This document shows, in pieces, positions 38,977-64,000 of a stretch of 64,000 nt of DNA. Numbering within the stretch: the first letter of the stretch is position 1; every line of letters starts with the position of its first letter. A model generated the notes under the pieces. That model saw only the letters and a program-made list of their open reading frames with translations, was not told the DNA's origin and ran no database searches. A program made the position numbers and the translations under genes. Source of the DNA: a virus (taxonomy: Duplodnaviria > Caudoviricetes); the IMG/VR virus record IMGVR_UViG_3300031992_002338. One strand, given 5' to 3'.

Positions 38977-39447
38977 TTATTCATTATAAGGATTTTCATC
39001 AAAGAAATAATTCTCTTCACTTGGAACGTCATAATCGCTGTAATCGACCTCAATGTTATTTTGAAGAGCTTTTTGAATGATTCCATTGTCTTCTATTGGA
39101 GTGCAATCACCATCTTGGCAATAATCAATCTCAATTACTTCAACTTCTGGATTATCAATTATCTCATCTGGGTCATCTGGCACGTCATAGTCATTGCTTC
39201 TCATACCTTGCTTCAAATATGGGCTACATAAGACATTGTACTTTACGTAAGCAAATGTGTCTTCGCCTAACTCTACCTCTGCCTCGTTCTCTCCTGGACT
39301 TGCGCTCAGTTGTTGCTGAACCAATCCTTGAGCAATGTCTTGTAAGAGTAGGTCATCACCACCTTGCTCACGCAAAATTCTCTCAACGCTACGTTGAATG
39401 AGATTGTGCAAATCTGACTCAGTTAATCTAATTATTTTTTTCATCAA
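38977..39447 (-). CDS. RLTESDL-leader acidic protein
   Basis: MKKIIRLTESDLHNLIQRSVERILRE; ATATTTATA at 39466-39474. Confidence 0.8.
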   Translation of the reverse strand: MMKKIIRLTESDLHNLIQRSVERILREQGGDDLLLQDIAQGLVQQQLSASPGENEAEVELGEDTFAYVKYNVLCSPYLKQGMRSNDYDVPDDPDEIIDNPEVEVIEIDYCQDGDCTPIEDNGIIQKALQNNIEVDYSDYDVPSEENYFFDENPYNE

Positions 39448-39603
39448 AAAATTATTTCTTTATATTATAAATATAACAAACTACGAAAAATATTCAATAT
39501 TTTTTGATATTTTTGTTAATATTGTCATATTCTTTAGTCACATAATGATATATGGCATATTCAGTACCCACAATGAATACTAAAAATAGTATTTCAAATG
39601 TTA

Positions 39604-40041
39604 TCATAATCCAAGATAGTCTAATATTGGATAGCAATTTTTTCTTATCTCTTCTTTCTCGTCTTTTGTGTATTTTGATTTATCACTGATAAGGTAATCA
39701 ACCTCTTCCCTACCATTTCTTACAGCTACGCATTTGGTAAGGTGACTACATTCCCAATCTATAACTGCACCAAGCCAATCAATCTTATTCATGCCATTTC
39801 TTCTACCGTAGAAGATATGGTGCTTATTATGATGCTTATGCCATTGTCTTACTCGGTTATAATCGCCCCAAATAAGTTTAAGCCAAGGCTTCTCAATGTC
39901 ATGTAAAAGCCATTTAGGTTTCCATACACCTAGCTTCCATGCAGTATAGTTGAAAGCAAAATAGTGCCAAGCCCAATATTTAAAACTAGATTTTTGAGAA
40001 ACATCAAATTTTCTCCATTTAATTTTTAAATTTTTAAACAT
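39604..40041 (-). CDS. HD-like (DUF5662-like) protein
   Basis: LHDIEK, HKHHNKHH, IDWEC. Confidence 0.6.
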   Translation of the reverse strand: MFKNLKIKWRKFDVSQKSSFKYWAWHYFAFNYTAWKLGVWKPKWLLHDIEKPWLKLIWGDYNRVRQWHKHHNKHHIFYGRRNGMNKIDWLGAVIDWECSHLTKCVAVRNGREEVDYLISDKSKYTKDEKEEIRKNCYPILDYLGL

Positions 40042-40043
40042 AA

Positions 40044-40595
40044 TTACTGTTGATAATATGGAGAGCTATATACGCTGTCAGAATATACTATATCAGCATC
40101 CTCATTGGCTCTCTCCAATACTTTGTTCTTGATTACTAAAATATCATTTGTGTTGTATAATGGGATATTATAGTGCCTACATACAAGTCTAACATTATCA
40201 TACCTATAGAAATTAGGATTGCAGAATACAATTAATTTTCTAGTTCTTGCAAATAGTCCTAGCTCCATGAGTGATATTGGTGACTTTGAGTTACCCAATA
40301 TATTCATCACAATTAGGTCAGCCCTCTCAAGATGGTATAACTCCCAATTGATTTGTTTTTCAATCTCATTATTATCATTACTATCTGGCCAATCCTCTCT
40401 CCTTGGATTATAAATCATAATAGGATGAACCGTATCTTCTTTATTTAATTCATCAATAATGGCTTGTTGGTGGTTTACCGAATCGCCACAATCTATAGTA
40501 CCTCCTAGAAATAGGTTTAATGGTACTACACCATCTATTGTGTAAACACTATTATCATAATTGAAAGGAGGTAAAAATAATTTGTTCTTCTTCAT
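40044..40595 (-). CDS. Nucleoside 2-deoxyribosyltransferase-like protein
   Basis: LFLGGTI, YNPRREDW, QINWEL, SPISLMELGL. Confidence 0.85.
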   Translation of the reverse strand: MKKNKLFLPPFNYDNSVYTIDGVVPLNLFLGGTIDCGDSVNHQQAIIDELNKEDTVHPIMIYNPRREDWPDSNDNNEIEKQINWELYHLERADLIVMNILGNSKSPISLMELGLFARTRKLIVFCNPNFYRYDNVRLVCRHYNIPLYNTNDILVIKNKVLERANEDADIVYSDSVYSSPYYQQ

Positions 40596-40602
40596 AACAG
40601 CG

Positions 40603-40634
40603 CAAATATATAGATTTAAAATGGGAAATCCAAA
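40603..40634 (-). promoter_or_regulatory. Bacteroidota-type promoter
   Basis: TTTG-N20-TATATTTG. Confidence 0.7.
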
Positions 40635-40642
40635 TAAATCAC

Positions 40643-41311
40643 TTATTTTTTAGGCGAAATTAAGACTTTATCTGCAATACCCAAATCTTCTACAGCTTCT
40701 TGCCCTATATACCACTTATCCCTATCACATAAATGTTCAATTTCTTCAAATGATTTTCCACAATTCTCTGAAAGAATATGGTATATATCATTTTGGCATC
40801 GTATAGTTTGTTCCATTTCAATCTTTATATCAGCAGTATGCCCTTGAAATCCGCTTGAGACAGAATGCACCATTACCCTACTATGTGGAAGAACAAATCT
40901 CTTTCCCTTTGTTCCACAGCTTAAAATTACAGCGCCCATTGATGCTGCCATGCCTAGGCATACTGTTGAAACATCTGACTCTATGTAATTAATAGTATCA
41001 ATGAGTGAAAGACCCGATACTACATCCCCTCCTGGACTATTTATGTAAATGCTAACATCCCTATTATCCACTGAATTTAAATATAGCAATTGAGCAATCA
41101 TAATGTCCATCGTTTGGGCATCTACTTGCCCACTAAGAAAAAGAATTCTATCTTGAATCAAGCGGCTAAATACATTCATTTCTGAAACTCGCATGGCTGA
41201 ATCTCGTTCTTCTATAATTGTTGGATAAACAGATTCAGCAAAAGATGAATCCACATTAACCTTGTCTTTTGCGAAATGTTTAAAATCTTCAAAAGTGCCT
41301 ATTTTATTCAT
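40643..41311 (-). CDS. clpP: ATP-dependent Clp protease proteolytic subunit
   Basis: FSRLIQDRILFL, YINSPGG, AASMGA, MVH, DRD. Confidence 0.95.
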   Translation of the reverse strand: MNKIGTFEDFKHFAKDKVNVDSSFAESVYPTIIEERDSAMRVSEMNVFSRLIQDRILFLSGQVDAQTMDIMIAQLLYLNSVDNRDVSIYINSPGGDVVSGLSLIDTINYIESDVSTVCLGMAASMGAVILSCGTKGKRFVLPHSRVMVHSVSSGFQGHTADIKIEMEQTIRCQNDIYHILSENCGKSFEEIEHLCDRDKWYIGQEAVEDLGIADKVLISPKK

Positions 41312-41330
41312 AATTTATATAAATTAACGG

Positions 41331-42233
41331 TTATTTTCCCCTCTCTTTTGGATAGTCATATGTTTTATTTAATTCTAAAAACTTTTTCCTTAATTGTTTT
41401 GTTTCTTTTTTGTCTCTACCTAAAACAAAAGCATACTTCCCTTTTGGTTTAACTTCAACTTTTTCTGCTTTGCTAAACATTTCTTTAGAGCAGTCTCTAA
41501 GTTGTTTCTCAATTTCATCTGGAATGTTTTCCCAATATATCTTATCGCCCTTATTCCAATTATCTTTCCATTCGATTCCTAAGTCTTTTGCATATCGTTT
41601 ATAAAAGCTTCTACTTCGGAATTGCCTATCAGAAATCACGCTATTTGGATTATATGGATTAATACACATAATTTTACGACCAGTTCCATTACCCAAAAAA
41701 TAAAAATTTAAAGCTCTGTATATCCTTCCGTCTTCTTTGGCTGATGAATCACTATAGCACGTAAACAGTCTATATTGTGTATTATCTACCATCCATTTAA
41801 TACACCACATCAGAAACTTACTGCCAAGGTTTTTTGGAGAAAAACTTGCGCTTGCGCCTCTTGCAATAAGTCTTTCGTATTCTCTTGTGTTATCGCCTAA
41901 AAGCTTACTAAACGCATAAGGCATTGCAAACATTATAACACCGCCTAGAATGCCTTTATAGCGTGCTGTGAATATATGGCTTACAAATACCCCATTGCAG
42001 CTACCTAACCACTCATATTTTTCAATAAACCTATATGTTTCGTCTTTTTTTGCTTTATCGTCCTTATCGACATATTCAAACGTAAAATCGTCAAGAGAAA
42101 TATCATCAATATCACTTTGAGACCAACCATATTTTTCCATATCTTCTTGTAATGTGTCTAGTCTCTTCTGATATTGATAACACCAAGGTTTATCATAGTT
42201 TTTTATTTTCTCAAGTAATTTTATATCACTCAT
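41331..42233 (-). CDS. Mom-like (GNAT) DNA adenine-modification protein
   Basis: FIEKYEWLG, LIARGA, YSDSSAKEDGRIYRALNFYFLG. Confidence 0.65.
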   Translation of the reverse strand: MSDIKLLEKIKNYDKPWCYQYQKRLDTLQEDMEKYGWSQSDIDDISLDDFTFEYVDKDDKAKKDETYRFIEKYEWLGSCNGVFVSHIFTARYKGILGGVIMFAMPYAFSKLLGDNTREYERLIARGASASFSPKNLGSKFLMWCIKWMVDNTQYRLFTCYSDSSAKEDGRIYRALNFYFLGNGTGRKIMCINPYNPNSVISDRQFRSRSFYKRYAKDLGIEWKDNWNKGDKIYWENIPDEIEKQLRDCSKEMFSKAEKVEVKPKGKYAFVLGRDKKETKQLRKKFLELNKTYDYPKERGK

Positions 42234-42536
42234 TTAACTTTTTCTTTTAATTCCTATTGTACAATAAAAAACATCATCCAAAGAATCATTTTCCATTTTT
42301 ATCATCCAAGCATCAAATCCATTTACAGACAAACCATCAAAAGTTCTTGTCAAACCTTTCAAGTAATTTATCCAATTTCCGTTTCCATTAAGTCCGCCAG
42401 TAAGTTTAACAATAAATGTTCCATATTCGTCAACAATATAATCAGATGCAAATATATTACTGTCTTCTAACCTATAAGACTCAACTAGTGCCTTAACGTC
42501 ACCCCAAAGCCCTATCAAATCTAAATTCTCATTCAT
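42234..42536 (-). CDS. hypothetical protein
   Basis: Operon ORF. Confidence 0.65.
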   Translation of the reverse strand: MNENLDLIGLWGDVKALVESYRLEDSNIFASDYIVDEYGTFIVKLTGGLNGNGNWINYLKGLTRTFDGLSVNGFDAWMIKMENDSLDDVFYCTIGIKRKS

Positions 42537-44491: not shown

Positions 44492-44523
44492 CAAAGATAT
44501 ATAAAAAAGGTTAAAAAAACAAA
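44492..44523 (-). promoter_or_regulatory. Bacteroidota-type promoter
   Basis: TTTG-N20-TATCTTTG. Confidence 0.72.
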
Positions 44524-45349: not shown

Positions 45350-46450
45350 ATGAAAACAAAAGATTTTATAAAAAAAGCTATAAAAATTCATGGTAATAGA
45401 TATGATTATTCAAAAGTAAATTATATTGATACAAACACCAAAGTTTGCATAATTTGTCCAGAGCATGGCGAATTTTGGCAAACCCCACATAATCATTTAC
45501 GTGGAAGAAAATGTAAAAAATGTTATTTTGATTCAGAAAAATTAAATACGATTAGTTTTATAGAAAAAGCAAAGAAAGTTCATGGGGATAAATATGACTA
45601 TTCAAAAGTAGAATATATTGATAGTAAAACTAAGGTATGTATAATATGTCCTAAACATGGAGAATTCTTACAGACACCACATAATCATCTTTCTTGTAAA
45701 GGATGTCCAAAATGTAGCGGAACAAAAAAATTAGACACTAATATTTTTATACAAAAAGCTAAAGAAATTCATGGTGATATATATGATTATTCAAAAGTAG
45801 AATATAAAGGGTCAAAAGAAAAAATATGTATAATATGTCCTAAACATGGAGAATTTTGGCAAACCCCAAATAACCACCTTTCTAATCAAGGATGTCCTAA
45901 ATGTAGCATTGACAATATAACAAATAAAAACAAGTTTACTACTGCTTTTTTCATTGAAAAATCGAAGAAAGTTCACGGTGATAAGTATAACTATTCGAAA
46001 GTAGAATACGTAAATTCAAAAACTAAAATTTGCATTATATGTCCTATACATGGAGAGTTTTTGCAAGCACCAAACAAACATCTTTTAGGGCAAGGATGCC
46101 CACTATGTAGTGAAAGTAAATTAGAAGAAGAGACTAGAATATTATTAGAAAATAATAAAATAAGATTCGAATATCAAAAAAGGTTTGATTGGCTAGGTAA
46201 AAAAAGTTTAGACTTCTATCTTCCAGATTATAATATTGCAATTGAATGCCAAGGTAAACAGCATTTTATTCCTAGTGATTTTTTTGGTGGAGAAAAAAGG
46301 TTATTAGAAACCAAAGCAAGGGATAAAGAAAAAGCCATCTTATGTAAAACTAACGATGTAAATCTAATATATTATAATTATAACGAAAATACGAGAATAT
46401 TAAAAAATAAATTGTATGATAAAATAAACAGAACAAGTACACGACCATAA
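45350..46450 (+). CDS. Zn-ribbon-repeat (DUF723-like) homing endonuclease with PD-(D/E)xK/Vsr-like C-terminus
   Basis: Four HGDKYDYSKVEY..CIICPxHGEFxQ..H..GCPxC repeats; LDFYLP..IAIECQGKQH. Confidence 0.85.
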   Translation: MKTKDFIKKAIKIHGNRYDYSKVNYIDTNTKVCIICPEHGEFWQTPHNHLRGRKCKKCYFDSEKLNTISFIEKAKKVHGDKYDYSKVEYIDSKTKVCIICPKHGEFLQTPHNHLSCKGCPKCSGTKKLDTNIFIQKAKEIHGDIYDYSKVEYKGSKEKICIICPKHGEFWQTPNNHLSNQGCPKCSIDNITNKNKFTTAFFIEKSKKVHGDKYNYSKVEYVNSKTKICIICPIHGEFLQAPNKHLLGQGCPLCSESKLEEETRILLENNKIRFEYQKRFDWLGKKSLDFYLPDYNIAIECQGKQHFIPSDFFGGEKRLLETKARDKEKAILCKTNDVNLIYYNYNENTRILKNKLYDKINRTSTRP

Positions 46451-46936: not shown

Positions 46937-47273
46937 AATAATTTTGAATCGTGTTAATTAACCAGTTACTGCTGCTAACAAATGCCCCATCTAAAAACAC
47001 TGTTATGTACCAATATTCTAATGGCAAATAAACCATAGCCATTGGAGTAAATGATATTGTAGGAATGACTAACAAATTAAGTGCTGACATTCCAAATCCA
47101 AGCCACCACCCACTACATATAAAGCATGAAAGCATTTCATCTAATTGTGGGTGTATCTTTTTTGCGATTTCATGCATTTTATCAAAGCAATGAAATGGTC
47201 CATGAGCATATATTATTGTATTGGCGATACCATAACAAATAATTATATAAATGAATAATATTAACCACTGCAT
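46902..47273 (-). CDS. DUF1360-like membrane protein
   Basis: TM helices with LSCFICSGWW. Confidence 0.6.
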   Translation of the reverse strand: MQWLILFIYIIICYGIANTIIYAHGPFHCFDKMHEIAKKIHPQLDEMLSCFICSGWWLGFGMSALNLLVIPTISFTPMAMVYLPLEYWYITVFLDGAFVSSSNWLINTIQNYFETNSYEQGNE

Positions 47274-48163
47274 ATATTTACTAATTCTTTAATTTTATCT
47301 TCTAATTTATCATTATAATTTATATAGAACAAATTTAAATTATTATCATTGCACAATATAAATTTATTTTTATCTAACATTTTTCTATATTCAAATGCTT
47401 TTTTACCGCCAAAAAATTTTATTGGTTCAAAATGCTGTATACCTTGGCATTCAATAGCTACATTATATTCTGGTAAATAAAAATCCAAACTTTGCCTACC
47501 TAACCATGATAAATCTTTTTTTCTGCAATGCCAAACATATTTTAAATTATTTTTTTCTAATTCTTTAGCAACTTTTTCTTCTAATGAACTATTTTGACAA
47601 TGCGGACACCCAACACCCCTCATATGATGCATGGGATAAGTAAAAAATTCGCCATGTTTGGGGCAAATAACGCATACTTTTGTTTTTTGATTTATATATG
47701 CCGTTTTACTATAATCATACTTCTCACCATATAATTTTTTACAAATTGAAACAAATTCGTTAGTCGTATAATTATGTGTCATAGAACATTTTTTGCAGCC
47801 ACACCCATTAAAATGGTGTTGTGGCGTTTGCCAAAATTCTCCATGAATAGGGCATATTATACAAACTTTGGTTTGATTATTTACATATTCTACTTTAGAA
47901 TAATCATATTTATCGCCATGAATTTGTTTGGCTTTACTTATAAATTCTTCTAATGAATATCTAATACTTCTATGTGAACAGTATGGGCAATTCTGTCCAT
48001 GCAAATGGTCTAATGGGAGTTGTAAAAAATTACCGTGAATTTTACAAACTATTTCAACTGGTTTTTGTGCTGATTCATATACAACTTTGGAATAGTCATA
48101 TTTATCACCATGTACATTTTTAGCTTGCTCTATAAATTCCTCAGTAGTTTTCTTTTTTGACAT
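47261..48163 (-). CDS. Zn-ribbon-repeat (DUF723-like) homing endonuclease
   Basis: Three repeats plus LDFYLPEYNVAIECQGIQH; paralog of 45350-46450. Confidence 0.85.
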   Translation of the reverse strand: MSKKKTTEEFIEQAKNVHGDKYDYSKVVYESAQKPVEIVCKIHGNFLQLPLDHLHGQNCPYCSHRSIRYSLEEFISKAKQIHGDKYDYSKVEYVNNQTKVCIICPIHGEFWQTPQHHFNGCGCKKCSMTHNYTTNEFVSICKKLYGEKYDYSKTAYINQKTKVCVICPKHGEFFTYPMHHMRGVGCPHCQNSSLEEKVAKELEKNNLKYVWHCRKKDLSWLGRQSLDFYLPEYNVAIECQGIQHFEPIKFFGGKKAFEYRKMLDKNKFILCNDNNLNLFYINYNDKLEDKIKELVNICSG

Positions 48164-48645: not shown

Positions 48646-48840
48646 TTAAAAACCACAAATTAAGATTGTTATTATATACGCAACGGCAGCACCAAATAAT
48701 GCCAAGCCCCTTTCTGAAGAAACTAGTTTACCCTTCTTCAATCTGAAGATTGTAACTGTATGCAAGATTCCTGCCAATACAACAAATATTGCCATAATGA
48801 ACAAGAACACTTTTAATTCTAATAATAAACTGACTATCAT
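48646..48840 (-). CDS. small two-TM membrane protein
   Basis: Two hydrophobic helices. Confidence 0.65.
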   Translation of the reverse strand: MIVSLLLELKVFLFIMAIFVVLAGILHTVTIFRLKKGKLVSSERGLALFGAAVAYIITILICGF

Positions 48841-48936: not shown

Positions 48937-49803
48937 TTAATAACCACTTTCTGCATCATTAGAAAAATCGCCAGATTTAATCTTTGTATATATTATTCTA
49001 GCAAGTTGCTCACCAAGTGTACTATTAAACCAATTTTCAAATTGTGATGTGTGTAAATCATTTGGATTCATTTGATGCCCAAAACCGCTATGTCCTAATA
49101 CTACATCATCAACTTGGAAGTCTCCGTCAAATGTTCCTCTGAATGACACGGCTTCTGACATACCCTCACCATAATCAGCCTCAAATTCATAATATGAATC
49201 TCCTGTTTCCCATACATATACCTTTCTTAAATCATCTGGTTTTATATGTGAGACATCTGATATTGGGTCTATATCATCATCACCCATTTCATATGGGTCA
49301 CTAGTGCTAGCAAAATCACCGTCTGAATATTGGTTGAAATCTTCTTTTAAAATACGTCTAACAGAGTTTTCAATTATTTGACGTAAATCGCTCTCTGTTA
49401 ATCTTATAATCTTCTTCATGCGTTTTTTATTTTCTACTATATTAGTTTTGGCATATTGACCTTGTGTTGGGTCAATCCAAGCTACATCGTCTAAATTAAC
49501 AACTTTACTATAAACTTTATTACTACCAGCATAACTCATGGCTTCCATCTTAGATGGTGTGACAAATGCACCATTTTTAATTGGATAGGAACTATAAACC
49601 ACAATTTTTCCGCTATTTAACGCATTTATTGCGTCTTTTTTTGAAAAATCTGGAGTTATTCCATATATTTCACCTTCTTCTTGCCAAACCTCTTCATATG
49701 TTTTTATATCAGAAACATCTTTAATCCATGTATGATTGCCTAGTTCTGAATTGAAGGGATTGCCATTAGTTATAAGTTCAAATTGTTTTTGTTTGTCTAC
49801 CAT
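48937..49803 (-). CDS. Two-domain protein: ART-like N-domain, internal RLTESDL motif, acidic C-domain
   Basis: VVYSS..I.NGAFVTPS..EA..YAG..KVY..V...DVAW; internal MKKIIRLTESDLRQIIENSVRRILKE. Confidence 0.7.
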   Translation of the reverse strand: MVDKQKQFELITNGNPFNSELGNHTWIKDVSDIKTYEEVWQEEGEIYGITPDFSKKDAINALNSGKIVVYSSYPIKNGAFVTPSKMEAMSYAGSNKVYSKVVNLDDVAWIDPTQGQYAKTNIVENKKRMKKIIRLTESDLRQIIENSVRRILKEDFNQYSDGDFASTSDPYEMGDDDIDPISDVSHIKPDDLRKVYVWETGDSYYEFEADYGEGMSEAVSFRGTFDGDFQVDDVVLGHSGFGHQMNPNDLHTSQFENWFNSTLGEQLARIIYTKIKSGDFSNDAESGY

Positions 49804-50495
49804 TATTTTGCCAAATCAAACGTAACTGAAGCACCAGCCATTATTCCCCATTGTTTATTTACTATGTCATAACCTGCTGTAAAAGATGGACCCACACTAA
49901 ATCTACTTAGAAACTTACGTTTTCCTTTTTTATTAAAAACTGTAACATTAGATATATTTCCGTTATTGTTAGAACCGATAGTTATATGGTTTATTCCATC
50001 TTCTTCTTTATTTACAATTGTAAATTTATTTTTAGTTCTAACATTTAAAGAATACCAATTGGGTTCTGTATACGAATTTACATTTAACTTATATTGAAAA
50101 GTATCATTTAGCTCACTATTATACTCATATGTTTTTGCCATCAATGTCTCACTAATCTTAATGGTATCAAACACTATGCTGTCTACAATATTCGGTTTAG
50201 TTTCTATTTTACCAGTTTCATATTCTTTTTCGTGAGTAAATTGTACAATGAAATCAATTTTATCTTTGTACTGTTTTAAGGAATCATAGAGTTCTTTATT
50301 TTCTTTTTTTAATTCCTTAAATGTTTTACTGTAATATATTTTGTTATAGTTATTCAAACTGTCATAATATTCAACCTCTTCTATTAATTTTTTAGAAGAT
50401 TCATATTGTTTATTTGAAAACCATATTAAACCGCACGTTACCAAAAACAATGCAAGTACTATGTAAAAACATTTTTCCTTAAATAGTTTTTTCAT
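49803..50495 (-). CDS. Membrane-anchored protein (possible spanin-like)
   Basis: N-terminal TM, coiled coil, C-terminal beta strands FSVGPSFTAGY. Confidence 0.5.
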   Translation of the reverse strand: MKKLFKEKCFYIVLALFLVTCGLIWFSNKQYESSKKLIEEVEYYDSLNNYNKIYYSKTFKELKKENKELYDSLKQYKDKIDFIVQFTHEKEYETGKIETKPNIVDSIVFDTIKISETLMAKTYEYNSELNDTFQYKLNVNSYTEPNWYSLNVRTKNKFTIVNKEEDGINHITIGSNNNGNISNVTVFNKKGKRKFLSRFSVGPSFTAGYDIVNKQWGIMAGASVTFDLAK

Positions 50496-51283
50496 TTTTC
50501 GCTTATATTTTTTCTTTTACTTAGTTGGACTTGCAAATCAAGAAGTTCACTAATTGTATTACCATAAGATTTTAGTTTAGAAGCAATTAAATCATTTGAA
50601 GGTAAAGACTCTAGATTATGAAACGTAACGCCAAGAAAACCAATAGGTCCTTCACTGCCATTTAAATAAATCATTGAAACATATTTTCCACCTTCTTCTT
50701 TTATATATTTTGCAAATTCATAATCCACACTCTCTATTTCATCTATAGTACCAACAAAGAATTTGTTTTTATACATATAATTTGGATATGTATACATATT
50801 TAATGGAACATCTTGGAATTTTTGATAGCACCTAACAACGCCTTTTTCCCTGTTTGTTATTTCGTATGACATATCAGCATATCTGAAAGGCAATCCGCTC
50901 ATATTTTTTTTGCCGTTGTGAAGCTCAAAAATAAATACCCTATCTGCCCCCAATGTATAAAGTAGTACCTCTATATCATGTTGAACTTTTGGAGTAACAA
51001 CAAAATCTCTTAAATCTTCTTCTTCTTTAGAATTTTCTACAATCTTATGCGATGTCTCTTTAATGAACTCTTCATTTTTAACAATATTATAAGCATAAAA
51101 TGCTGTCAATGCGGTGGCTAGAAAGAAAAACGTAACGAAGTAAACTTTAATTATTTTAGTCCATTTTGCATTTGCGATTGTACTTGTAAACCATTTACCA
51201 ACTTGTGTATAAACTGGTTCTTTTTTATCCTCTTTTGGGCTGATATTAATGTTTATATCATTGTTTTTCATTTCAAAATACAA
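50492..51283 (-). CDS. Single-TM protein with GAF-like domain (possible T-type holin)
   Basis: TM ~45-65; ADRVFIFELHNG...PIGFLGV. Confidence 0.45.
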   Translation of the reverse strand: MYFEMKNNDININISPKEDKKEPVYTQVGKWFTSTIANAKWTKIIKVYFVTFFFLATALTAFYAYNIVKNEEFIKETSHKIVENSKEEEDLRDFVVTPKVQHDIEVLLYTLGADRVFIFELHNGKKNMSGLPFRYADMSYEITNREKGVVRCYQKFQDVPLNMYTYPNYMYKNKFFVGTIDEIESVDYEFAKYIKEEGGKYVSMIYLNGSEGPIGFLGVTFHNLESLPSNDLIASKLKSYGNTISELLDLQVQLSKRKNISEK

Positions 51284-51297: not shown

Positions 51298-52116
51298 TTA
51301 ATCTATTAACTTTCTAGCCTTTTTGACCATATCAGCAAATTCCTTATCCTCTTGAATTCTGAAATTAGAAGTTGATGTTTTAGCTTCTGCGCTTTTATAA
51401 CCCCAAAGCTGTTTTATTCTCTCCTTCTGCTCATTTACTAGAGTCATGTTAAGCTTCTTAGTTATGTTAGGCTCTTTTGCTGTCCACTCTACCAAATACT
51501 GGTTGTCAGCACCGTCTCTCATAATAAATCTCTTACCTTCAACCTTAAATTCATCTGGTATCATCGTTCTCATATGACCCTCTGAAAGAAATTTGGTGTT
51601 CTTGAAGGAAAGCATCTTAATCTTTTTAGATTCTTCCATTGTTTCCGTATTTTTTTCAATGTCATTTTTATTTAGCTCACGTCCAGTGAGACCAATTTCA
51701 GCAGCTGTATCTTTTCCTTGCTTAACTGCCTTTGCATGTTCTTTGGCTGCATTGTAGATGTTCTCATCTTTATCAAATGTAGCGTTTCCAAACTCATCGT
51801 TCTTGTGTTTGTCTTCAGCATCCTTTGATACATAACCCTTCATCTGGGACTTGATTCTGTCCTTAAAAGGCTTGCTGATATTGTCGTAAGCCAAATCGTG
51901 CATACCCTTATTATCGGTTGCACTTATGCCACCTCCAAGCTTCTTAGTTCCTTTAGAAAGTCCACCATCATAATTATCGGTTTCCTTTTTAATGTCGCTG
52001 TAAGCCTTATCGTTGATTTTTTTCGACTCATCATTTCCAAAAACTACTGGTTTGAATTCGTTTTGACTTTCCTTGATAACTCTTCTCAATTCGCCTACAC
52101 TAATTTTTGTTACCAT
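51298..52116 (-). CDS. Leader-bearing hypothetical protein
   Basis: KISVGELRRVIKES N-terminus. Confidence 0.75.
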   Translation of the reverse strand: MVTKISVGELRRVIKESQNEFKPVVFGNDESKKINDKAYSDIKKETDNYDGGLSKGTKKLGGGISATDNKGMHDLAYDNISKPFKDRIKSQMKGYVSKDAEDKHKNDEFGNATFDKDENIYNAAKEHAKAVKQGKDTAAEIGLTGRELNKNDIEKNTETMEESKKIKMLSFKNTKFLSEGHMRTMIPDEFKVEGKRFIMRDGADNQYLVEWTAKEPNITKKLNMTLVNEQKERIKQLWGYKSAEAKTSTSNFRIQEDKEFADMVKKARKLID

Positions 52117-52123: not shown

Positions 52124-52270
52124 TTAATTAAATTGATTTATGTATAATCCCCTTAATAATTGCTCGAACATTAACTTTGTTCTAGCTTTACCATCAGTCT
52201 CTTCATTAAGCTTATCACTTATCTCCCTGACTTTCTTAATTGTATCTGCATTTGCTTCGTAATCTATCAT
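52124..52270 (-). CDS. 48-aa small protein
   Basis: MIDYEANADTIKKVREISDKLNEE...; overlaps the upstream stop. Confidence 0.55.
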   Translation of the reverse strand: MIDYEANADTIKKVREISDKLNEETDGKARTKLMFEQLLRGLYINQFN

Positions 52271-53028
52271 TGTATATCAAAATCACCTAAATTAAATATA
52301 TGCTCATCAGAATTTGGACAATACTTTTTTAAAAGTGCATTCCAAGGATTTTGACCGTGTGAAGCAGCAATTTTCCCAACCAAACATATTTTGCCATTTA
52401 CTTCAGAAACATATGCTTTTTGGTTTTTTTCCCAAACTTTAGGATTGGCATTCCTATCCTTATATGCTCTTGGGAATTTTTTAATTAAGTCTTTTACACT
52501 CATTTGCTGCCTTTGCTGTTGCATAACTGTTGTATTGGTAGAATCATTTCCTTGTATATGAGAATTTTGTGCATTTGCTTGCATTGGACTCATTGCCATC
52601 ATCCCACCAAGTGCAGCACCTTTCAGCCAATTTCCAATACTTTCGTCTATAACATCATCTACTTTTTTTTTACTTTCAACACGTTGTATTGCCATTGAAC
52701 CGTTTTTAAAGTCCTTGCTTCTCTTTTCAGTTTCACCCATATCAACTTGATTCGTCTTTGCTTGTGTGACATCACCAAGATTATGAGCTTGTCTCATTAT
52801 AGGTTCACTAAATGCATTACCGCCTACTTTTTTTTTGTTTTTTCCGCCAAAAGCGGGTGCATCAATATGGTTTTTAGCTTGGCCAGTTGGGTCTGAAGGC
52901 CCGCCTGCAGGGGAATTAACGCTGAAACTTGATGTTCCACCTAATCCTTCTTCTTTCAAAATTCTATTTACAGTTTCTTTTACAATATTATGTAAATCGC
53001 TTTCTGTAAGTCTTATAATCTTTCTCAT
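52267..53028 (-). CDS. RLTESDL-leader protein
   Basis: MRKIIRLTESDLHNIVKETVNRILKEE; internal DESIGNWLKGAALGGMM; tandem ATATTTATA at 53048-53062. Confidence 0.8.
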   Translation of the reverse strand: MRKIIRLTESDLHNIVKETVNRILKEEGLGGTSSFSVNSPAGGPSDPTGQAKNHIDAPAFGGKNKKKVGGNAFSEPIMRQAHNLGDVTQAKTNQVDMGETEKRSKDFKNGSMAIQRVESKKKVDDVIDESIGNWLKGAALGGMMAMSPMQANAQNSHIQGNDSTNTTVMQQQRQQMSVKDLIKKFPRAYKDRNANPKVWEKNQKAYVSEVNGKICLVGKIAASHGQNPWNALLKKYCPNSDEHIFNLGDFDIQ

Positions 53029-53073
53029 ATTAACGCATTTATTTATATATAAATATAAATATTAGTTAAAATA

Positions 53074-53105
53074 TTTGGTTAATTCAAAGTTTTTTCATAC
53101 CTTTG
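53074..53105 (+). promoter_or_regulatory. Bacteroidota-type promoter
   Basis: TTTG-N20-TACCTTTG. Confidence 0.75.
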
Positions 53106-53137
53106 CAGCGTAAAACAAAAATAAACATTATATTAAT

Positions 53138-53365: not shown

Positions 53366-53959
53366 TTATCTAATTGTTTTTCTAGGTCTTCTAGATTCAT
53401 CGCTTCTGCCTGCCATCAAGCCATTGTTAGGGTTTGTTGGTTGTATTGGTTTTCCCATTGCATTCAATTTTTGTTGCATTTGTGGCTGTTGCTGTTGTCC
53501 TTGAGTTTGTTGTTGTCCACCTTGTGGCTGTTGCTGTTGTCCTTGAGCTTGTTGTTGATTATTTGCAAATCCGCTATTTACTTGTGTATTGAATTGAGGC
53601 TTAGTATTAGCTACGTTTTGAGCCATTTGGCTAAATTCTTGAGCAGTCTTTGTAAATTGTTGGCTAACTGTGTCTAAGTCGCTTACAACTTGTTGATTTC
53701 CACTTTTTTGAGCCACTTGTTGCATTTGTTGAATAATTTTTTGAACTTGCTGTTCATATTTATTGAAAGATGATGCCCAATTACCAGCTTTATATGTTTG
53801 CCCAACATTAAGATTACCTTGTTTCATACCATTCCAAACATTTTTCAAGCCACCCCAAACACCTTCTTGCATTCCATTTTCTCTAATGTATCCCCTTACA
53901 GCTTCTTCCACAAGGAAATGAAGGTCTTGTTCTGTTAATCTAATTGGTTTCTTATCCAT
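53366..53959 (-). CDS. RLTE-leader Gln-rich protein
   Basis: PIRLTEQDLHFLVEEAVRGYIRE; EGVWGGLK; poly-Q. Confidence 0.8.
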   Translation of the reverse strand: MDKKPIRLTEQDLHFLVEEAVRGYIRENGMQEGVWGGLKNVWNGMKQGNLNVGQTYKAGNWASSFNKYEQQVQKIIQQMQQVAQKSGNQQVVSDLDTVSQQFTKTAQEFSQMAQNVANTKPQFNTQVNSGFANNQQQAQGQQQQPQGGQQQTQGQQQQPQMQQKLNAMGKPIQPTNPNNGLMAGRSDESRRPRKTIR

Positions 53960-53985: not shown

Positions 53986-54138
53986 TTATTTGCCTATTCT
54001 GTTAACTACTCTATACTCTCCATTTTTTGAAATTGTAGCACCACTATTATCTGGGTTCATTACGAAATTACTACCATCCTTAGTTATGCAACCGTCATCA
54101 AAACCATAAAAGTCTAGTGTTCTAATCTTTTGTTTCAT
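53986..54138 (-). CDS. 50-aa small protein
   Basis: MKQKIRTLDFYGFDDGC...; overlaps the upstream stop. Confidence 0.5.
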   Translation of the reverse strand: MKQKIRTLDFYGFDDGCITKDGSNFVMNPDNSGATISKNGEYRVVNRIGK

Positions 54139-54689
54139 ATTTTTCTATTTTTTATTTTGTTATTATATATGTCAGTTGCTTGTTTAACATATTCAGGCGC
54201 ATCTTCACTACTAATTACCCCCATTGTCAATGGTGAGGCTAACATTGTGTCGATTTGACCTCTCATAGTTAAATCATTTCCTAATTCATTCTTATGCAGC
54301 ATTAAGCCTTTTGATGTATGGTATGCTTCAGCTATTGATGTCAAACTGCTATGCAACTTTCTTAGTTTATCCTTGAAATTCTCCCTAGGAACACTGTACT
54401 TAACATAATACCTTGACGTTTGGCTTCCGTCAGTTTCATCATAAGGCTCACGAATATCTTCTTCCTTTTTGATTACCCCATAATCTAACAGTTTCTTCCT
54501 CAACATTCCATTATGTAAACCATAATCCCTCAATATCTCGCTTGGTTTCGTTCCGATTGGGTCATTTAGTAAACCCTTTATAAACTTTAAAATCTCTTCA
54601 TAAAATGTTTGAAATGGGAGTCCTTTATTTTCTTCATCTTCAGTTAAAACTCTATTGAATGAAGATTCGTTTATATGTATTATTTTCAT
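54135..54689 (-). CDS. Leader-bearing hypothetical protein
   Basis: MKIIHINESSFNRVLTE start overlapping the upstream stop. Confidence 0.7.
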   Translation of the reverse strand: MKIIHINESSFNRVLTEDEENKGLPFQTFYEEILKFIKGLLNDPIGTKPSEILRDYGLHNGMLRKKLLDYGVIKKEEDIREPYDETDGSQTSRYYVKYSVPRENFKDKLRKLHSSLTSIAEAYHTSKGLMLHKNELGNDLTMRGQIDTMLASPLTMGVISSEDAPEYVKQATDIYNNKIKNRKI

Positions 54690-54895
54690 CTTGTAACTCC
54701 CCCCCTCCATGTGCTGCTACGATTCCAAAGAGTCCTAAACAAATCCTCAATAACGTCAGCAGTCACTTCCTTAACTGCCTTCTTGAAATCCCTTGAATCA
54801 TATGAAGATGAAAGCTTTCTAGAAACTATTGCCTCAACATCAGTCTTGCTAATCTCTTCACTTATTATTTGCCTAATCCTTTCGTCTGAAACCAT
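54686..54895 (-). CDS. hypothetical protein
   Basis: Likely start MVSDERIRQIISEE, downstream of ATATTTATA 54916-54924. Confidence 0.65.
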   Translation of the reverse strand: MVSDERIRQIISEEISKTDVEAIVSRKLSSSYDSRDFKKAVKEVTADVIEDLFRTLWNRSSTWRGGVTR

Positions 54896-54978
54896 ATCTA
54901 TATTTATTATATATATATAAATATTAAGATAAACAAAAAATGCAACCATTTCTAGCTGCATTTTTTGTATCGGCTATT

Positions 54979-55455
54979 TCACCATTTTTTATTAACATAT
55001 TCTTGTTGGGAATTAGTTAAATGAGCATTATCACCATATGGTATTGTGTTTGAAAATTCCATTCTGTCCATTCCATTATGATGCTTTTTAAAATTATCAT
55101 CATTTAAATTAGCTAGGTTAGTGCGTTGTTTTTGTTTTCTCAAAACAAAATTTTCTATCATTTCTAAATAAGTTAGCATTTTTCTAGCTTGACCACTTCC
55201 AGTAGAAGTTCCTTTCCAATTTGTATTACCTAATGTGTATGAATTAAGCGAATCGTCATCATTATAAACGTAATTTTCTAAATATTCACGTATTTCTTTT
55301 ATGCTTTTAAGTATTTCATCACTATTATCCAAATATTCAGATTTTCCAGCTGCTGAATCACTTTTTAGCCAGCTTATTTCCGAAATTATCCTTTTAGTAG
55401 ATTCTTTCACAATCTTATGAAGGTCATTCTCTGTTAATCTAACTATTTTTTTCAT
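54979..55455 (-). CDS. RLTE-leader protein
   Basis: MKKIVRLTENDLHKIVKESTKRIISE. Confidence 0.8.
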   Translation of the reverse strand: MKKIVRLTENDLHKIVKESTKRIISEISWLKSDSAAGKSEYLDNSDEILKSIKEIREYLENYVYNDDDSLNSYTLGNTNWKGTSTGSGQARKMLTYLEMIENFVLRKQKQRTNLANLNDDNFKKHHNGMDRMEFSNTIPYGDNAHLTNSQQEYVNKKW

Positions 55456-55493
55456 ATTTATCTCTTTATTTTATACATAAATATTAAGATAAA

Positions 55494-55646: not shown

Positions 55647-56372
55647 TCACTTAACATTTACCACTTCGCCATCATCTATTATACAATTTGGCGGGATGTT
55701 GTTCAATGTATACAAACCATACTTATGATTTTGGTCATTAAAAAATTTAATATTTTTTGGTAGTTTATTGACATCAATCTTCAAAATAGAATATATACCA
55801 TCATTAAAATCCCTTGTTGCATAATTATTCAATGCTTTAGCAGAATTCACGATTTCAGAAGTTGGAGTATCTCCTTTTAAAAAATAAACTCTGCTTGGAT
55901 AGTTAAACAATATGTTTTTACTGTATGGACATAAACCAATTCTTTTTATCTTGTCCTTATTTGAATGATGAGTCACGTGATATAATATATCATCAATTTC
56001 TTGTTCCTCTTCCTCAAACTTTGGCTCGTAGTGTATTCTATCTAAACCATCCATTGACATCCTAATAGATTCAAAATATTCACATAGGTTCATTGCCTTG
56101 TCAACACGTTCTTGAAATCTTTCATTTTTGGGTAAGTCAATTGCAATGCATTTAACACCATTGTTCTCATAATCGTGCATATAGAATCTAGGTATATTGA
56201 AGTATTCCATAACATATCTCATCATTGTCTCAAATGGATACGTCTTAATTAAACCCTCATTCAGATTTTCACTGCACATATCAATGGACAACGGATTGTC
56301 ATAAGACACACTAACTTGTTCTTCAAAAAGACTCCTATATTGATGTTCTGAAATCCTAACTTTTTTATTCAT
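55647..56372 (-). CDS. Leader-bearing protein with C-terminal ADP-ribosyltransferase-like (Tpt1/KptA-like) domain
   Basis: KVRISEHQYRSLFEE, LNEG; LYHVT..N...I...GL.P, RVYF, ILKID, IPPNCI. Confidence 0.65.
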   Translation of the reverse strand: MNKKVRISEHQYRSLFEEQVSVSYDNPLSIDMCSENLNEGLIKTYPFETMMRYVMEYFNIPRFYMHDYENNGVKCIAIDLPKNERFQERVDKAMNLCEYFESIRMSMDGLDRIHYEPKFEEEEQEIDDILYHVTHHSNKDKIKRIGLCPYSKNILFNYPSRVYFLKGDTPTSEIVNSAKALNNYATRDFNDGIYSILKIDVNKLPKNIKFFNDQNHKYGLYTLNNIPPNCIIDDGEVVNVK

Positions 56373-57404: not shown

Positions 57405-58145
57405 TTAAACAAATAATTCTTCCAAATCATCATATAATAATATTTTGGAACGTAACTTTCTTAAGCTTACTAATTTTATTTGTCTAACCCTCTCACTACT
57501 CAAATTATATTTTTTGCCAATTTCACTTAAGGTCAATTCTTTGTTGCTATTAAGACCATAATAGTTTTCAATAATGTCACGTTCTCTATCTGATAATGTA
57601 CCTATTATACTTGTGATGATATTTCTCTGGTTCTCAGTCACTTCTCTACTCTTTTCATCATTTTCATTTGATAAATCATTGTTGAATGAGACATCATCTT
57701 CATCATCCTCAATAAGTTTCTTATCCATTGAGGCATCATTATCTATATTTGGCTCTATCTCAACAAAATTAATGGTATTTTTCTTCTTAATAGATTCAAG
57801 CATCGCTTGTCTAATCCACCATACTGCATACGATATAAATTTTACATCTTTCGATTCATCAAATTTATCAATCGCCTTTAATAGCCCCATATTCCCATCC
57901 GATATAAGCTCTGAAATAGGTACTCCACGACCTGTGTAGTGCTTGGCAATATCGAAAACAAACCTAAGATTGGCTTCTAATATTTCATTTTTAGCTTTTA
58001 GATTACCTTTCTTACATTTCTTCAGCAAGCGTTTTTCTTTCGCTTTCGTAAGAGGTTTGTATTTTTTCAAGTCATCATAATAGGCCCTAACGGTTTCTGT
58101 AAAATCATTAGCATATTGGTTCATATTGATTGGTAATATTAACAT
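57405..58145 (-). CDS. RNA polymerase sigma70-family factor
   Basis: ANLRFV, GNMGLLKAIDKFD..KFISYAVWWIRQ, LTLSEIG..SSERVRQI. Confidence 0.92.
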   Translation of the reverse strand: MLILPINMNQYANDFTETVRAYYDDLKKYKPLTKAKEKRLLKKCKKGNLKAKNEILEANLRFVFDIAKHYTGRGVPISELISDGNMGLLKAIDKFDESKDVKFISYAVWWIRQAMLESIKKKNTINFVEIEPNIDNDASMDKKLIEDDEDDVSFNNDLSNENDEKSREVTENQRNIITSIIGTLSDRERDIIENYYGLNSNKELTLSEIGKKYNLSSERVRQIKLVSLRKLRSKILLYDDLEELFV

Positions 58146-61015: not shown

Positions 61016-61029
61016 TTAACATATTTTTG

Positions 61030-61061
61030 CAAATATATATAAAATTTATATAAATTCCAAA
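61030..61061 (-). promoter_or_regulatory. Bacteroidota-type promoter
   Basis: TTTG-N20-TATATTTG. Confidence 0.7.
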
Positions 61062-61124
61062 TATTTGTTAAATTATATTTAAATTTATAATAATATATTG
61101 TATTTTTTAATAAAATATATTAAA

Positions 61125-61895: not shown

Positions 61896-61900
61896 AAAAG

Positions 61901-61933
61901 AAAAGCGAGATTCAACAAAGAGTCTCGCTTTTT
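61901..61933. terminator. Bidirectional terminator
   Basis: AAAAGCGAGA/TCTCGCTTTT between convergent genes. Confidence 0.72.
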
Positions 61934-61936
61934 GAT

Positions 61937-63487
61937 TTAATATATTGCGACATTAAATGTCTCTAACTTTTTATGCGCATTCATCATTGCATGAAATTCA
62001 GCCTTAAGCTGTTCAATTGTTTTCTTTTTTCTTGTATTGCTTGCTTGTGGTACTCTATCAGCCCATTCAATACCATCGACACTCTCACTATTATATGTTG
62101 CTGTATATTTATGCTTAGAATGTGTACCATTCCAATAGAAAAATTCAGATTTGCATATGTTCTTATCTAAGTATATAACTTTTACATTTTTATTTTTCCA
62201 AGAAACATAGTTAAATGATAATTGGTCTCTGTGTGACCCATTTTTTAACTCCTTAAACCAATCTTCCATCAATTTAATACAATCTGGTTTATTATGTTTT
62301 CTTAAGATAATGTTGCTCTGTAATAAACCATATTTTTCTGGAAACCCTTCTTTTTTGTATTTTTCCATTTGAGGCTTTGTTATATTACTTTTGTCTTTAC
62401 CCATTCTTACAACTGCATTTGCTTCTGCATAAATACAGTTTCTTTGTGGGTGTTTCGGAACATATACTGAACAATCAGATGTCATTACATTTTTAACAAA
62501 CTTATTAAGGTCTCCTTTAAGTGTGACATTCCCATCAACCCAAATTGATATATCATATTCACTAAGTAAAAGATGTGGGTTTATTTTAACAAATCTCTGT
62601 TTTTTAATTTGAGATAATCCTTCAGTTTCTTTTGGTAACGGTCTTATATCCCAAATATCGCTTTTTAACGTTTTATTGTCAGTAAAACATATATAATCAA
62701 ATCCTTCTGTTATGTGTTTAGGATTTATTAACGAATCGTATTCACCAGTTATACAAGTATATACAACATTTTTGTTTTTTTCATTTGACCACAACTTTTT
62801 ATGTATTTTAAGCCATTCATCAATAGTTCTGTTATGAATTTTTGTGGTTGTATCCATCCAAGAAGCATTGTTATAGTGTTCGATATAATCTGATACTTTT
62901 ATATCTCTATGTTTCAACCCTATTGAGTCTTTACACAGTACTGCGCCAGTATCATACATATCTCCAAGTGGTGTTTTTCTTAGTCCATGCATAAAATTGT
63001 CATCAAAATAATGTATGTTATGCTTTTTGCACATTTCAGTATTTATGAAACATATGAATGGTAATATTCTATTTATTTTTGATGTTGGCTGATTTTGAAG
63101 TTCTCCAACATATATACAATCATCTTGGAATAAATCAGAACAATCTCTTTTTAATAGAACATCTGAATCCATAAGTATGAAATTATCGTTTATAATTTCC
63201 ATACTTTTTTCAACACTAATACAATGTTTTGCGCTGCCCCAATAGTTTCTTCTACCTCCAGACATCTTTCTATTAGGATAATTTTCAAGCCACTTATCAA
63301 AATTGATTATCTGACCTTTTGTATTATCAAAAACAGTGACGTTATCAAATTTAGCTGTAAAAGGTTTTTCATTACTATTATCAAAAATATAAATAATAGC
63401 ATCCTTTACAAATAAATTAATACTCCTTACCAAACACTCAGTAAGGTAAGGAGTATTATAATGTACTATTAGTATGTTTTTATCCAT
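61937..63487 (-). CDS. Two-domain glycosyltransferase (GT-A plus DUF616/TOD1-like)
   Basis: IVHYNT, FDNS, MDSDV; VYTCITGEYD, CFTDN, WVDGN, HPQRNCIY, RDQLSFNY. Confidence 0.8.
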   Translation of the reverse strand: MDKNILIVHYNTPYLTECLVRSINLFVKDAIIYIFDNSNEKPFTAKFDNVTVFDNTKGQIINFDKWLENYPNRKMSGGRRNYWGSAKHCISVEKSMEIINDNFILMDSDVLLKRDCSDLFQDDCIYVGELQNQPTSKINRILPFICFINTEMCKKHNIHYFDDNFMHGLRKTPLGDMYDTGAVLCKDSIGLKHRDIKVSDYIEHYNNASWMDTTTKIHNRTIDEWLKIHKKLWSNEKNKNVVYTCITGEYDSLINPKHITEGFDYICFTDNKTLKSDIWDIRPLPKETEGLSQIKKQRFVKINPHLLLSEYDISIWVDGNVTLKGDLNKFVKNVMTSDCSVYVPKHPQRNCIYAEANAVVRMGKDKSNITKPQMEKYKKEGFPEKYGLLQSNIILRKHNKPDCIKLMEDWFKELKNGSHRDQLSFNYVSWKNKNVKVIYLDKNICKSEFFYWNGTHSKHKYTATYNSESVDGIEWADRVPQASNTRKKKTIEQLKAEFHAMMNAHKKLETFNVAIY

Positions 63488-63506
63488 CGTTAACTATATG
63501 TAAAAA

Positions 63507-64000
63507 TTATTTTTCAATACCTTTTGAATACCCGTAGTTATATCCAGCTTCGTTATCAAAACCTAATTTAGGGTTTTTCTTATAGTTATCCCACGCTTTA
63601 TCGCTTGCGTCACTTGCAATTCTTTGTTGTTTAGTTCTTGCATCAACGCTACCATATTTATCATTATGGTATCTTGGTCTTGCAGCTGCTCTGCCCCTAA
63701 CTGCATTTAAAGCAAAATTTCCACGAGGGGTGTCACCAATCTCATTTAAATAGTTTTTTACAGATTCTTTAATAAGTCTATGCAAATCTGATTCCGTTAA
63801 TTTAATAATTTGCTTGTTCATTTTAGTATCTTTTTTAGATTCATTTGACCAACCTTTTCCATTTACATAATGAGATTTCCCACTATTAAAATCTTCAACA
63901 TCCTTCTCAGCATCACGGAATTTTTTACCCATATCATTATTACCATAGAATTCCTCTGGGGTTGTTTCGTGGGCATAATCCCACATTCTAGTCCTTCCAT
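63507..64000 (-). CDS. RLTESDL-motif protein (5' part probably outside the window)
   Basis: Internal MNKQIIKLTESDLHRLIKESVKNYLNE. Confidence 0.7.
   Translation of the reverse strand, partial: GRTRMWDYAHETTPEEFYGNNDMGKKFRDAEKDVEDFNSGKSHYVNGKGWSNESKKDTKMNKQIIKLTESDLHRLIKESVKNYLNEIGDTPRGNFALNAVRGRAAARPRYHNDKYGSVDARTKQQRIASDASDKAWDNYKKNPKLGFDNEAGYNYGYSKGIEK

Follow-up and report, generated by a model that had tools for sequence, protein, structure and literature searches.

A conserved 26-residue leader on unrelated proteins of uncultured jumbo phages as a candidate capsid-targeting propeptide

The 64,000-nucleotide stretch of phage DNA analyzed here (the window; IMG/VR record IMGVR_UViG_3300031992_002338) encodes a series of otherwise unrelated proteins that share a 26-residue leader. 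Judging from its context, we consider it somewhat probable that this leader is a portable capsid-targeting propeptide, probably a greatly expanded and longer variant of the capsid-targeting sequence (CTS) of phage T4. The original prediction for this DNA, that the leader is a tag by which variable proteins are loaded into the head for injection, is thus supported in part: it agrees with the presence of a prohead protease in related genomes, the position of leader genes in head modules, a promoter element shared with head genes, a leader that ends at [L/I]-x-Glu, cargoes that are mostly ORFans and include one with a predicted ADP-ribosyltransferase (ART) fold, and near-absence from cellular genomes; late timing, core binding, cleavage, packaging and injection are the steps that we infer from this context. 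The window is syntenic with the IMG/VR contigs G001, G002 and G004 at ~65-78% nucleotide identity (about 70%); these are 410-413 kb long and rated complete by CheckV. No DNA or protein relative of the window was found among GenBank phages.

A profile built from 116 non-identical leader instances (alignment A3) detects six significant copies in the window, with independent E-values of 1.5e-19 to 7.4e-15 and a next best match at E>3. Four of these are N-terminal, in the open reading frames (ORFs) 38977-39444, 52267-53028, 53366-53959 and 54979-55455, and two are internal, which bears out the copies first proposed at these places; the proposed total of about 11 was too high, and we count six firm copies and two likely ones. 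A relaxed regular expression run on all six frames of the window, about 128,000 residues, matches at eight places only, all on the minus strand and at ORF starts or module boundaries. The codons used by the six copies differ at many synonymous sites (e.g. TCA or AGC for Ser, TTA or CTT for Leu), and selection therefore acts on the leader peptide and not on the DNA. A DNA repeat or a recent duplication as the cause of the shared leader is ruled out by these synonymous differences together with the unrelated cargoes.

The consensus of the leader is M-K-K-I-I-R-L-T-E-S-D-L-H-x-I-V-K-E-S-V-x-R-I-L-x-E. In alignment A3, Glu9 is present in 116 of 116 instances, and I5, R6, L7, T8 and L12 each exceed 90%. 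The last four positions (alignment positions 24-27) are I/V (80%), L/I (91%), x and E (86%), and conservation ends sharply there, no residue exceeding 12% at the position after the terminal Glu. The leaders thus do end in hydrophobic-x-Glu, as had been claimed, and the leader holds three such sites: L-T-E (residue 9), which is invariant or nearly so, V-K-E (residue 18), which is common, and the terminal [L/I]-x-E (residue 26); in the consensus the first two are followed by Ser. The leader is more constant than what it precedes, being 73-96% identical among orthologues of 38977-39444 compared with 52-60% for the remainder. In AlphaFold2 (AF2) models of two leader proteins the leader has a predicted local distance difference test score (pLDDT) of about 45-65 and is unpacked against a confident cargo fold. 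No Pfam or PHROG family for the leader was found with ten candidate window proteins and 150 database members, and a word-index search with leader region 1-40 returned 28 proteins and no gain in domain information.

A T4 gp21-type S77 prohead protease (PF03420) is encoded in 9 of 10 large leader-carrying contigs, with E-values of 1e-23 to 1e-25, the three contigs syntenic with the window being among them. In G001 it lies in a block with a presumed terminase and portal (by eye), an acidic scaffold-like protein and a major capsid protein homologous to T4 gp23 (E 5e-29). In coordinates of locus L094, which covers this part of G001, the protease gene is at 13747-14451, the scaffold gene at 14621-16069 and the capsid gene at 16142-18175. 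Three leader genes sit inside this head block, two of them adjoining the protease gene, with a like arrangement in G002, G004 and G008; leader genes are no more than 1-2 kb from the protease gene in all four. G008 is a more distant, complete 295-kb genome with eight leaders and the S77 protease, and G006 has one divergent leader beside the protease gene. At the position expected for the T4 propeptide site, the G001 capsid protein reads L-I-Y-E|A, which suggests that a Leu/Ile-x-Glu specificity of the protease has been kept. As a separate observation, head-module proteins of G001 (locus L094, G001:36000-55999, at 2659, 9086 and 13747-14448, minus strand) begin with short tags ending in hydrophobic-x-Glu, among them MKKIYLKE and MKNKRILE, and the protease itself begins MKKAELEIIKE; this suggests that T4-like short propeptides exist in the head module besides the long leader.

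These genomes also bear on the idea that the leader is an intracellular interaction module unrelated to the virion, whose partner would control the folding, stability or activity of late accessory proteins. Candidate partners are the phage DnaK/DnaJ, for which K-K-I-I-R-L would resemble an Hsp70 site, the phage ClpP, for which the leader would be a degron, and a sigma factor or the polymerase. DnaK- and DnaJ-like proteins (by eye), ClpP and two sigma factors are indeed encoded in the window, and the leader begins with a basic-flanked hydrophobic core; there is nothing specific in its support, however, and the leader genes adjoin the prohead protease gene in the head module. The degron version is weakened because the complete G008 carries its leaders and protease and no ClpP. 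We regard an interaction module as quite unlikely.

The leader genes have a promoter-like element in common with the head genes. The heptamer TATTTAT precedes the terminase, portal, protease, scaffold, capsid protein and other large ORFs of G001, presumed virion genes. It is found upstream of 60 of 107 leader genes (56%) compared with 114 of 599 other ORFs (19%), mostly 21-33 nt before the ATG, and it precedes 37 of the 42 leader genes with AT-rich upstream DNA. The host-type element TAnnTTTG has the reverse distribution (6/107 leader genes vs 98/599 other ORFs). Since TATTTAT counted as a bare 7-mer shows no enrichment in the window (48 occurrences vs 41 expected), only its placement upstream of genes is informative. 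The copy at 55477-55483 probably heads an operon running down to 53366, and the remaining leader genes of the window, downstream in the same minus-strand runs, are presumably co-transcribed. By this shared element, the leader genes would be timed late, with the head genes. One or both of the phage sigma-70-family factors may read the TATTTAT promoters of head and leader genes, the factor at 57405-58145, just upstream of the leader-gene cluster, being a candidate; the second (Pfam r2 and r4) is at 15446-16399 on the minus strand. About fourteen window genes have T-rich DNA and TAnnTTTGC upstream instead, e.g. TATCTTTGCA. TAnnTTTG corresponds to the -7 promoter element that Bacteroidota use for housekeeping genes, so these genes are a probable early class read by the host polymerase and indicate a Bacteroidota host. 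Hydrophobic-x-Glu within residues 4-14 occurs in 45% of late non-leader ORFs vs 16% of early ORFs, with 15-20% at a control position; the sample is redundant and the comparison descriptive only.

The cargoes that follow the leader are as varied as the leader is constant. They lack mutual similarity and a common Pfam or PHROG family, as the original prediction held, and nearly all are without any family, so that they are mostly ORFans, with the ART-fold protein as the exception. In the window they comprise an acidic 129-aa, a basic 227-aa, a Gln-rich basic and a near-neutral 132-aa cargo, a second acidic domain and a basic 77-aa tail. The predicted acidic and Gln-rich character is borne out, with an isoelectric point (pI) of 4.1 for two of them and of 10.2 for the Gln-rich cargo of 53366-53959. 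The 129-aa cargo of 38977-39444 (pI 4.1) is modeled by AF2 at pLDDT 84-91, the leader being at ~50 and its helix running on into the first cargo helix; a fold search with this cargo against the PDB gave no match. The basic 227-aa cargo of 52267-53028, a protein without Pfam or PHROG family, has orthologues in relatives with cargoes of 113-261 aa.

The ART-like cargo of the original prediction is supported at the level of fold. The AF2 model of 55647-56372 has a mean pLDDT of 77, with low pLDDT for residues 1-43. Foldseek against the PDB matches it to KptA/Tpt1 (E 8e-6 to 8e-4, prob 1.00, TM-score about 0.45 per target); the top 17 matches are KptA/Tpt1 (16 among those listed), with PltA, DarT and pertussis toxin S1 coming next, and the nearest named clusters in the Atlas are DarT/PARP and Arr. 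H132, T134, R161 and D213 are invariant in the family alignment (A5), and Y131 and Y163 nearly so; ART enzymes use an Arg-His-Arg-Arg tetrad in Tpt1 and H-Y-E/R-S-E triads elsewhere. By its structural matches, the modeled fold is that of the ADP-ribosyltransferase superfamily, KptA/Tpt1-like.

The leader is confined almost wholly to phages and is very common there. A first IMG/VR scan confirmed at least 189 matches, of which 78 loci with 128 unique instances were kept; 120 of the 128 (about 94%) are N-terminal, with Met at -2/-3. Among 1.84 billion cluster representatives, 11,714 proteins match the profile at E<=1e-3, and 1,761 do so at the stricter E<=1e-10. Complete genomes, 295-413 kb in size, have 8-19 leader copies each. 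Among 185,579 prokaryote genomes (one per species) there are seven matches, all on contigs of metagenome-assembled genomes (MAGs) labeled Prevotella, Bacteroidaceae, Paludibacteraceae and similar. Its synteny with the 410-413 kb contigs, its TAnnTTTG elements and these MAG labels together identify the window as part of the genome of an uncultured Bacteroidota jumbo phage, whose source was probably rumen or gut. We propose that the leader carriers are a lineage of ~300-410 kb jumbo phages of Bacteroidota with T4-like heads. 'LTESDL' occurs in no paper that was found, and no paper found ties a capsid-targeting tag to Bacteroidota phages.

The internal copies were originally read as polyproteins cut at the tag, which is unsupported in that form; they arose by in-frame fusion of neighboring leader-plus-cargo modules, because the orthologues of these modules exist as separate genes whose first residue is the leader Met. 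Residues 129-288 of 48937-49803 are 71-74% identical to stand-alone 158-aa ORFs of G002 and G004 of this kind. The stretch 49420-49812, which encodes the upstream domain and includes 9 nt before the start codon, is the 393-nt stretch missing from those two genomes, the syntenic gap upstream of the leader gene being 8 nt there vs 393 nt in the window. The added domain matches positions 1358-1459 of 1879 of the large family phrog_13543 (E 1.6e-30). The second case is ORF 63507->64000, which continues past the edge of the window and represents the last part of a multi-module protein; it is 93% identical to the end of L058:1606-3102 (498 aa, two leaders), in which the order is domain, leader, 'DWKTYASA' module, leader and stop. 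A further example is the 661-aa protein L095:7804-9789 (G001:387803-389788), which has an unrelated N-terminal domain and then two divergent internal leaders, QIKLSEAELKQVVKEAAMKILSE and PMKVTENELKTIVKEAAVKLIKE; after the second leader comes a 'YGDSPKGQY' module of the same type as window 63507-63740. The top-scoring database proteins have 2-3 leaders each, typically about 100 aa apart; ranking by score favors multi-copy proteins, and internal copies make up about 6% in unbiased loci. No conserved site was found upstream of the internal leaders in a logo of 146 internal copies. A cleavage-like 'NES[KR]' considered there was dropped, the logo reflecting polar and charged composition only.

Internal and C-terminal positions would also suit an uncleaved docking or anchor module, a strand-plus-helix that fixes varied small late proteins to one site and stays on the mature protein. 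Such a site might belong to the virion, for capsid decoration or for accessories of the tail or baseplate, or to some other late assembly, as for the conserved N-terminal anchors of variable tail-fiber tips. Strong conservation of all 26 residues, beyond the needs of a simple cleavable tag, is in keeping with this, as are the late promoter element, the head-module neighbors and the continuity of the leader helix with the first cargo helix in the model of 38977-39444. Set against it, conservation halts precisely at [L/I]-x-E, and within the leader lie three sites of protease type, the invariant L-T-E among them; the leader is modeled with low confidence and detached from the cargo fold; and the cargoes, an ART-fold enzyme and highly charged ORFans, resemble effectors and not structural add-ons. 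We consider docking to be rather improbable.

The multi-copy proteins bear on one further reading, a DNA-binding arm of the ribbon-helix-helix (RHH) type, which would make the leader proteins small late regulators or DNA-coating proteins. By eye, K-K-I-I-R-L-T-E-S-D-L and the helix after it resemble the strand-helix A start of RHH proteins, and several cargoes are basic. However, only one helix is conserved, with no second; Pfam gives no RHH or other match down to E=1; the AF2 models predict neither a strand nor strand pairing; half of the cargoes are strongly acidic; and many proteins have their 2-3 copies about 100 aa apart. We hold this to be very unlikely.

If the leader is a capsid-targeting propeptide, the tagged proteins would be made late, alongside the head proteins, and the leader, with its basic start, short strand-like I-I-R-L-T and amphipathic helix, would bind the assembling scaffold or core. 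Proteins so bound would be enclosed in the prohead, where the gp21-type (S77) protease would cut after one or more of L-T-E (residue 9), V-K-E (18) and [L/I]-x-E (26); the invariant L-T-E at residues 7-9 may be the cut site instead of, or besides, the terminal I-L-x-E. The hypervariable cargo would then be free inside the head and would exit with the DNA at infection, likely to act in anti-defense or host take-over.

Several observations weigh against a capsid-targeting propeptide. The window itself is without head genes, the protease evidence coming from relatives, and G009, a 95%-complete linear leader-carrying contig, has no S77 protease. The 'late' class of the leader genes is assigned by a shared 7-mer. 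Hydrophobic-x-Glu is frequent in this Glu/Lys/Ile-rich proteome, at 15-20% per 11-residue stretch, and the residue following the last Glu is unconstrained. Leaders that are internal or, rarely, at the extreme C-terminus before a real stop codon are at odds with a purely N-terminal signal. The leader has 26 strongly conserved residues compared with a roughly 10-aa tag in T4, and because it is long and conserved throughout, its helix may serve a separate function once the protein is mature. In addition, tblastn searches of 50,697 GenBank phage records, with a complete leader protein and with just the leader as queries, found no cultured phage with the leader; the leader query gave two chance-level matches only, both to uncultured records.

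The closest known parallel is the T4 CTS of IPI-III and Alt. The T4 internal proteins have been described as 'a highly diverse set ... with only a conserved CTS' (PMC3012670, PMC5694885), and T4 Alt, an ART packaged in the head, is processed by gp21 at ITE-6 and LTE-619 (PMC5694885). Both tags are short, conserved and N-terminal on diverse, fast-evolving proteins; the leader lineage likewise has genes for a T4-type capsid, portal (by eye) and S77 protease; hydrophobic-x-Glu occurs in both, as the invariant L-T-E of the leader and as LTE/ITE in Alt; and one leader cargo, 55647-56372, shares an ART fold with Alt. The differences are considerable. The leader has 26 aa and three candidate cut sites compared with roughly 10-20 aa and one site; it is found in 8-19 strict copies per genome and in >11,000 protein clusters, T4 having four such proteins; and it is used in internal positions and tandem modules as well, in phages of a Bacteroidota host, its packaging and cleavage being putative. 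No similarity of the leader to the T4 CTS is seen by eye, nor by tblastn of the GenBank phage records, a set expected to contain T4-like phages; this counts against homology and not against a like mechanism.

In the phiKZ-like giant phages (phiKZ gp175, SPN3US gp245; S80 protease) many head-internal proteins are trimmed after Glu, at S/A/G-x-E or A-x-E; the SPN3US paralogues gp53 and gp54 have identical N-termini, and several sites per propeptide are possible (PMC5694885). They resemble the leader phages in their giant size, a gp21-related protease and several possible sites in one propeptide. They differ in that their propeptides are often >100 aa, with no single portable consensus on unrelated proteins, and that their P3 residue is small where the leader has Leu/Ile; the protease here matches the T4-type S77. 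Encapsulin cargo-loading peptides offer a functional analogy only: a short conserved peptide directs diverse cargo into an HK97-fold shell, but it is usually C-terminal and uncleaved, binds the shell protein, belongs to bacterial and archaeal nanocompartments and has no sequence relation to the leader. In the P1 Dar proteins and the MuF-fused polymorphic toxins, variable effectors are packaged in the head and reach the host together with the DNA, as proposed here, but via specific partner proteins or fusion to a head domain and not a common short leader.

A bolder version, which we hold only tentatively and would put a little short of even, is that the leader is a universal head-loading address shared by a large clade of uncultured jumbo phages that infect Bacteroidota in rumen and gut. 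It would serve at N-terminal, internal and C-terminal positions, in leader-plus-cargo modules that undergo shuffling, fusion and exchange, and would mark by far the largest known injected-effector repertoire, with thousands of ORFan families including ART-fold enzymes. If true, such a leader would be the protein-level counterpart of a secretion-system effector signal. The injected class of T4, with four members, has yielded specific restriction inhibitors and an RNA-polymerase-modifying ART. Were the leader a packaging address, its profile would give a catalog of candidate injected proteins across an entire clade of uncultured jumbo phages from rumen and gut, thousands of ORFan families probably active in the first seconds of infection (anti-defense, host take-over), and would supply a ready tag for loading foreign proteins into Bacteroidota phage capsids. 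Should the leader prove to be something other than a packaging tag, a module of 26 residues that occurs in >11,000 protein clusters and is absent from Pfam and PHROGs still merits definition as a family.

Five 'degenerate' copies had also been proposed in the window, none of which is significant with the profile. Two of them are retained as credible divergent relatives of the leader, 55647-56372 and 54135-54689, because they are the only regular-expression matches beyond the six firm copies and belong to a recurrent type, 'ISE.Q[FY]R', with which further late ORFs begin. The remaining three lack support. The N-terminus of 51298-52116, a protein conserved at 74-98% identity in 13 related loci and at 54-57% in two loci that are more distant, is like the helix part of the leader only. 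The small protein 54686-54895, with TATTTAT at 54917-54923, is of a different type, MISDERI[KR]xIINEE, which recurs on late ORFs of relatives; 14933-15412 likewise has another N-terminal type than the leader, with the late promoter element present. The features of the window are collected in Table 1.

Table 1. Leader copies, related N-termini, promoter-like elements and associated genes of the window
Feature	Position	Strand	Evidence or remark
Canonical N-terminal leader MKKIIRLTESDLHNLIQRSVERILRE of ORF 38977-39444	39367..39444	-	profile E 9.8e-19
Canonical N-terminal leader MRKIIRLTESDLHNIVKETVNRILKE of ORF 52267-53028	52951..53028	-	profile E 1.5e-19
N-terminal leader variant MDKKPIRLTEQDLHFLVEEAVRGYIRE of ORF 53366-53959	53879..53959	-	profile E 7.4e-15
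Canonical N-terminal leader MKKIVRLTENDLHKIVKESTKRIISE of ORF 54979-55455	55378..55455	-	profile E 8.4e-17
Internal leader, residues 129-154 of ORF 48937-49803	49342..49419	-	profile E 2.3e-18
Internal leader MNKQIIKLTESDLHRLIKESVKNYLNE, residues 56-82 of 63507-63986 (ORF 63507->64000)	63741..63821	-	profile E 1.2e-17
N-terminal domain fused upstream of leader, residues 1-128 of ORF 48937-49803	49420..49803	-	phrog_13543-like; absent from G002 and G004
Protein with credible divergent leader MNKKVRISEHQYRSLFEE and predicted ART-superfamily fold (KptA/Tpt1-like)	55647..56372	-	relaxed regular expression; Foldseek
Protein with credible divergent leader MKIIHINESSFNRVL / MKIIHINESSFNRVLTEDEE	54135..54689	-	relaxed regular-expression match at N-terminus; sub-significant in profile; conserved in relatives
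Conserved 272-aa neighbor of leader genes, N-terminus MVTKISVGELRRVIKES like leader helix part only	51298..52116	-	profile E 5.4, not significant
Small late protein of other N-terminal type MVSDERIRQIISEEISKTDVE, not RLTESDL	54686..54895	-	no profile match; TATTTAT upstream
TATTTAT promoter-like element upstream of leader gene 38977-39444	39467..39473	-	
Two overlapping TATTTAT upstream of leader gene 52267-53028	53049..53061	-	
TATTTAT upstream of leader gene 54979-55455	55477..55483	-	22-28 nt before start
Phage sigma-70-family factor just upstream of leader-gene cluster	57405..58145	-	Pfam Sigma70_r2 1.2e-18, Sigma70_r4 1.3e-14
TAnnTTTGC examples	4520-4535, 5380-5395, 7790-7800, 11430-11445, 13030-13040, 14830-14845, 20745-20760, 26815-26830, 36975-36990, 44500-44515, 53100-53115 (+), 61030-61045		
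Host-like gene set (ClpP; DnaJ/DnaK/IF3-/TyrRS-/NadE-/RtcB-like)	40643-41311, 19644-22751, 16431-16958, 11491-12780, 9255-10262, 5919-7262	-	ClpP by Pfam, others by eye

The window is AT-rich, at about 33% GC, with nearly all genes on the minus strand. Its host-like set of chaperone and translation genes is large, with ClpP (PF00574, E 6.7e-58), proteins like DnaJ, DnaK, IF3, TyrRS, NadE and RtcB recognized by eye, and six tRNA genes; tail-fiber-like proteins were also recognized by eye. Besides ClpP and the two sigma-70-family factors, Pfam identifies a VWA protein and a Mom-like protein, the latter (41331-42233, minus strand) by a weak match just above the cut-off (E 2.6e-6) that hints at DNA modification.

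Within the leader-gene cluster there are three predicted membrane proteins, at 48646-48840, 49803-50495 and 50492-51283 on the minus strand, one of them small with two hydrophobic segments and two with a single N-terminal hydrophobic segment. Two paralogues, 45350-46450 (plus strand) and 47261-48163 (minus strand), consist of repeated zinc-ribbon units of the form 'HG(D)KYDYSKV.Y....K..IIC..HGEF' (DUF723/DUF4379) with a nuclease-like C-terminus, and partial DNA copies of them are numerous and dispersed in related genomes, as expected of homing-endonuclease-like mobile genes.

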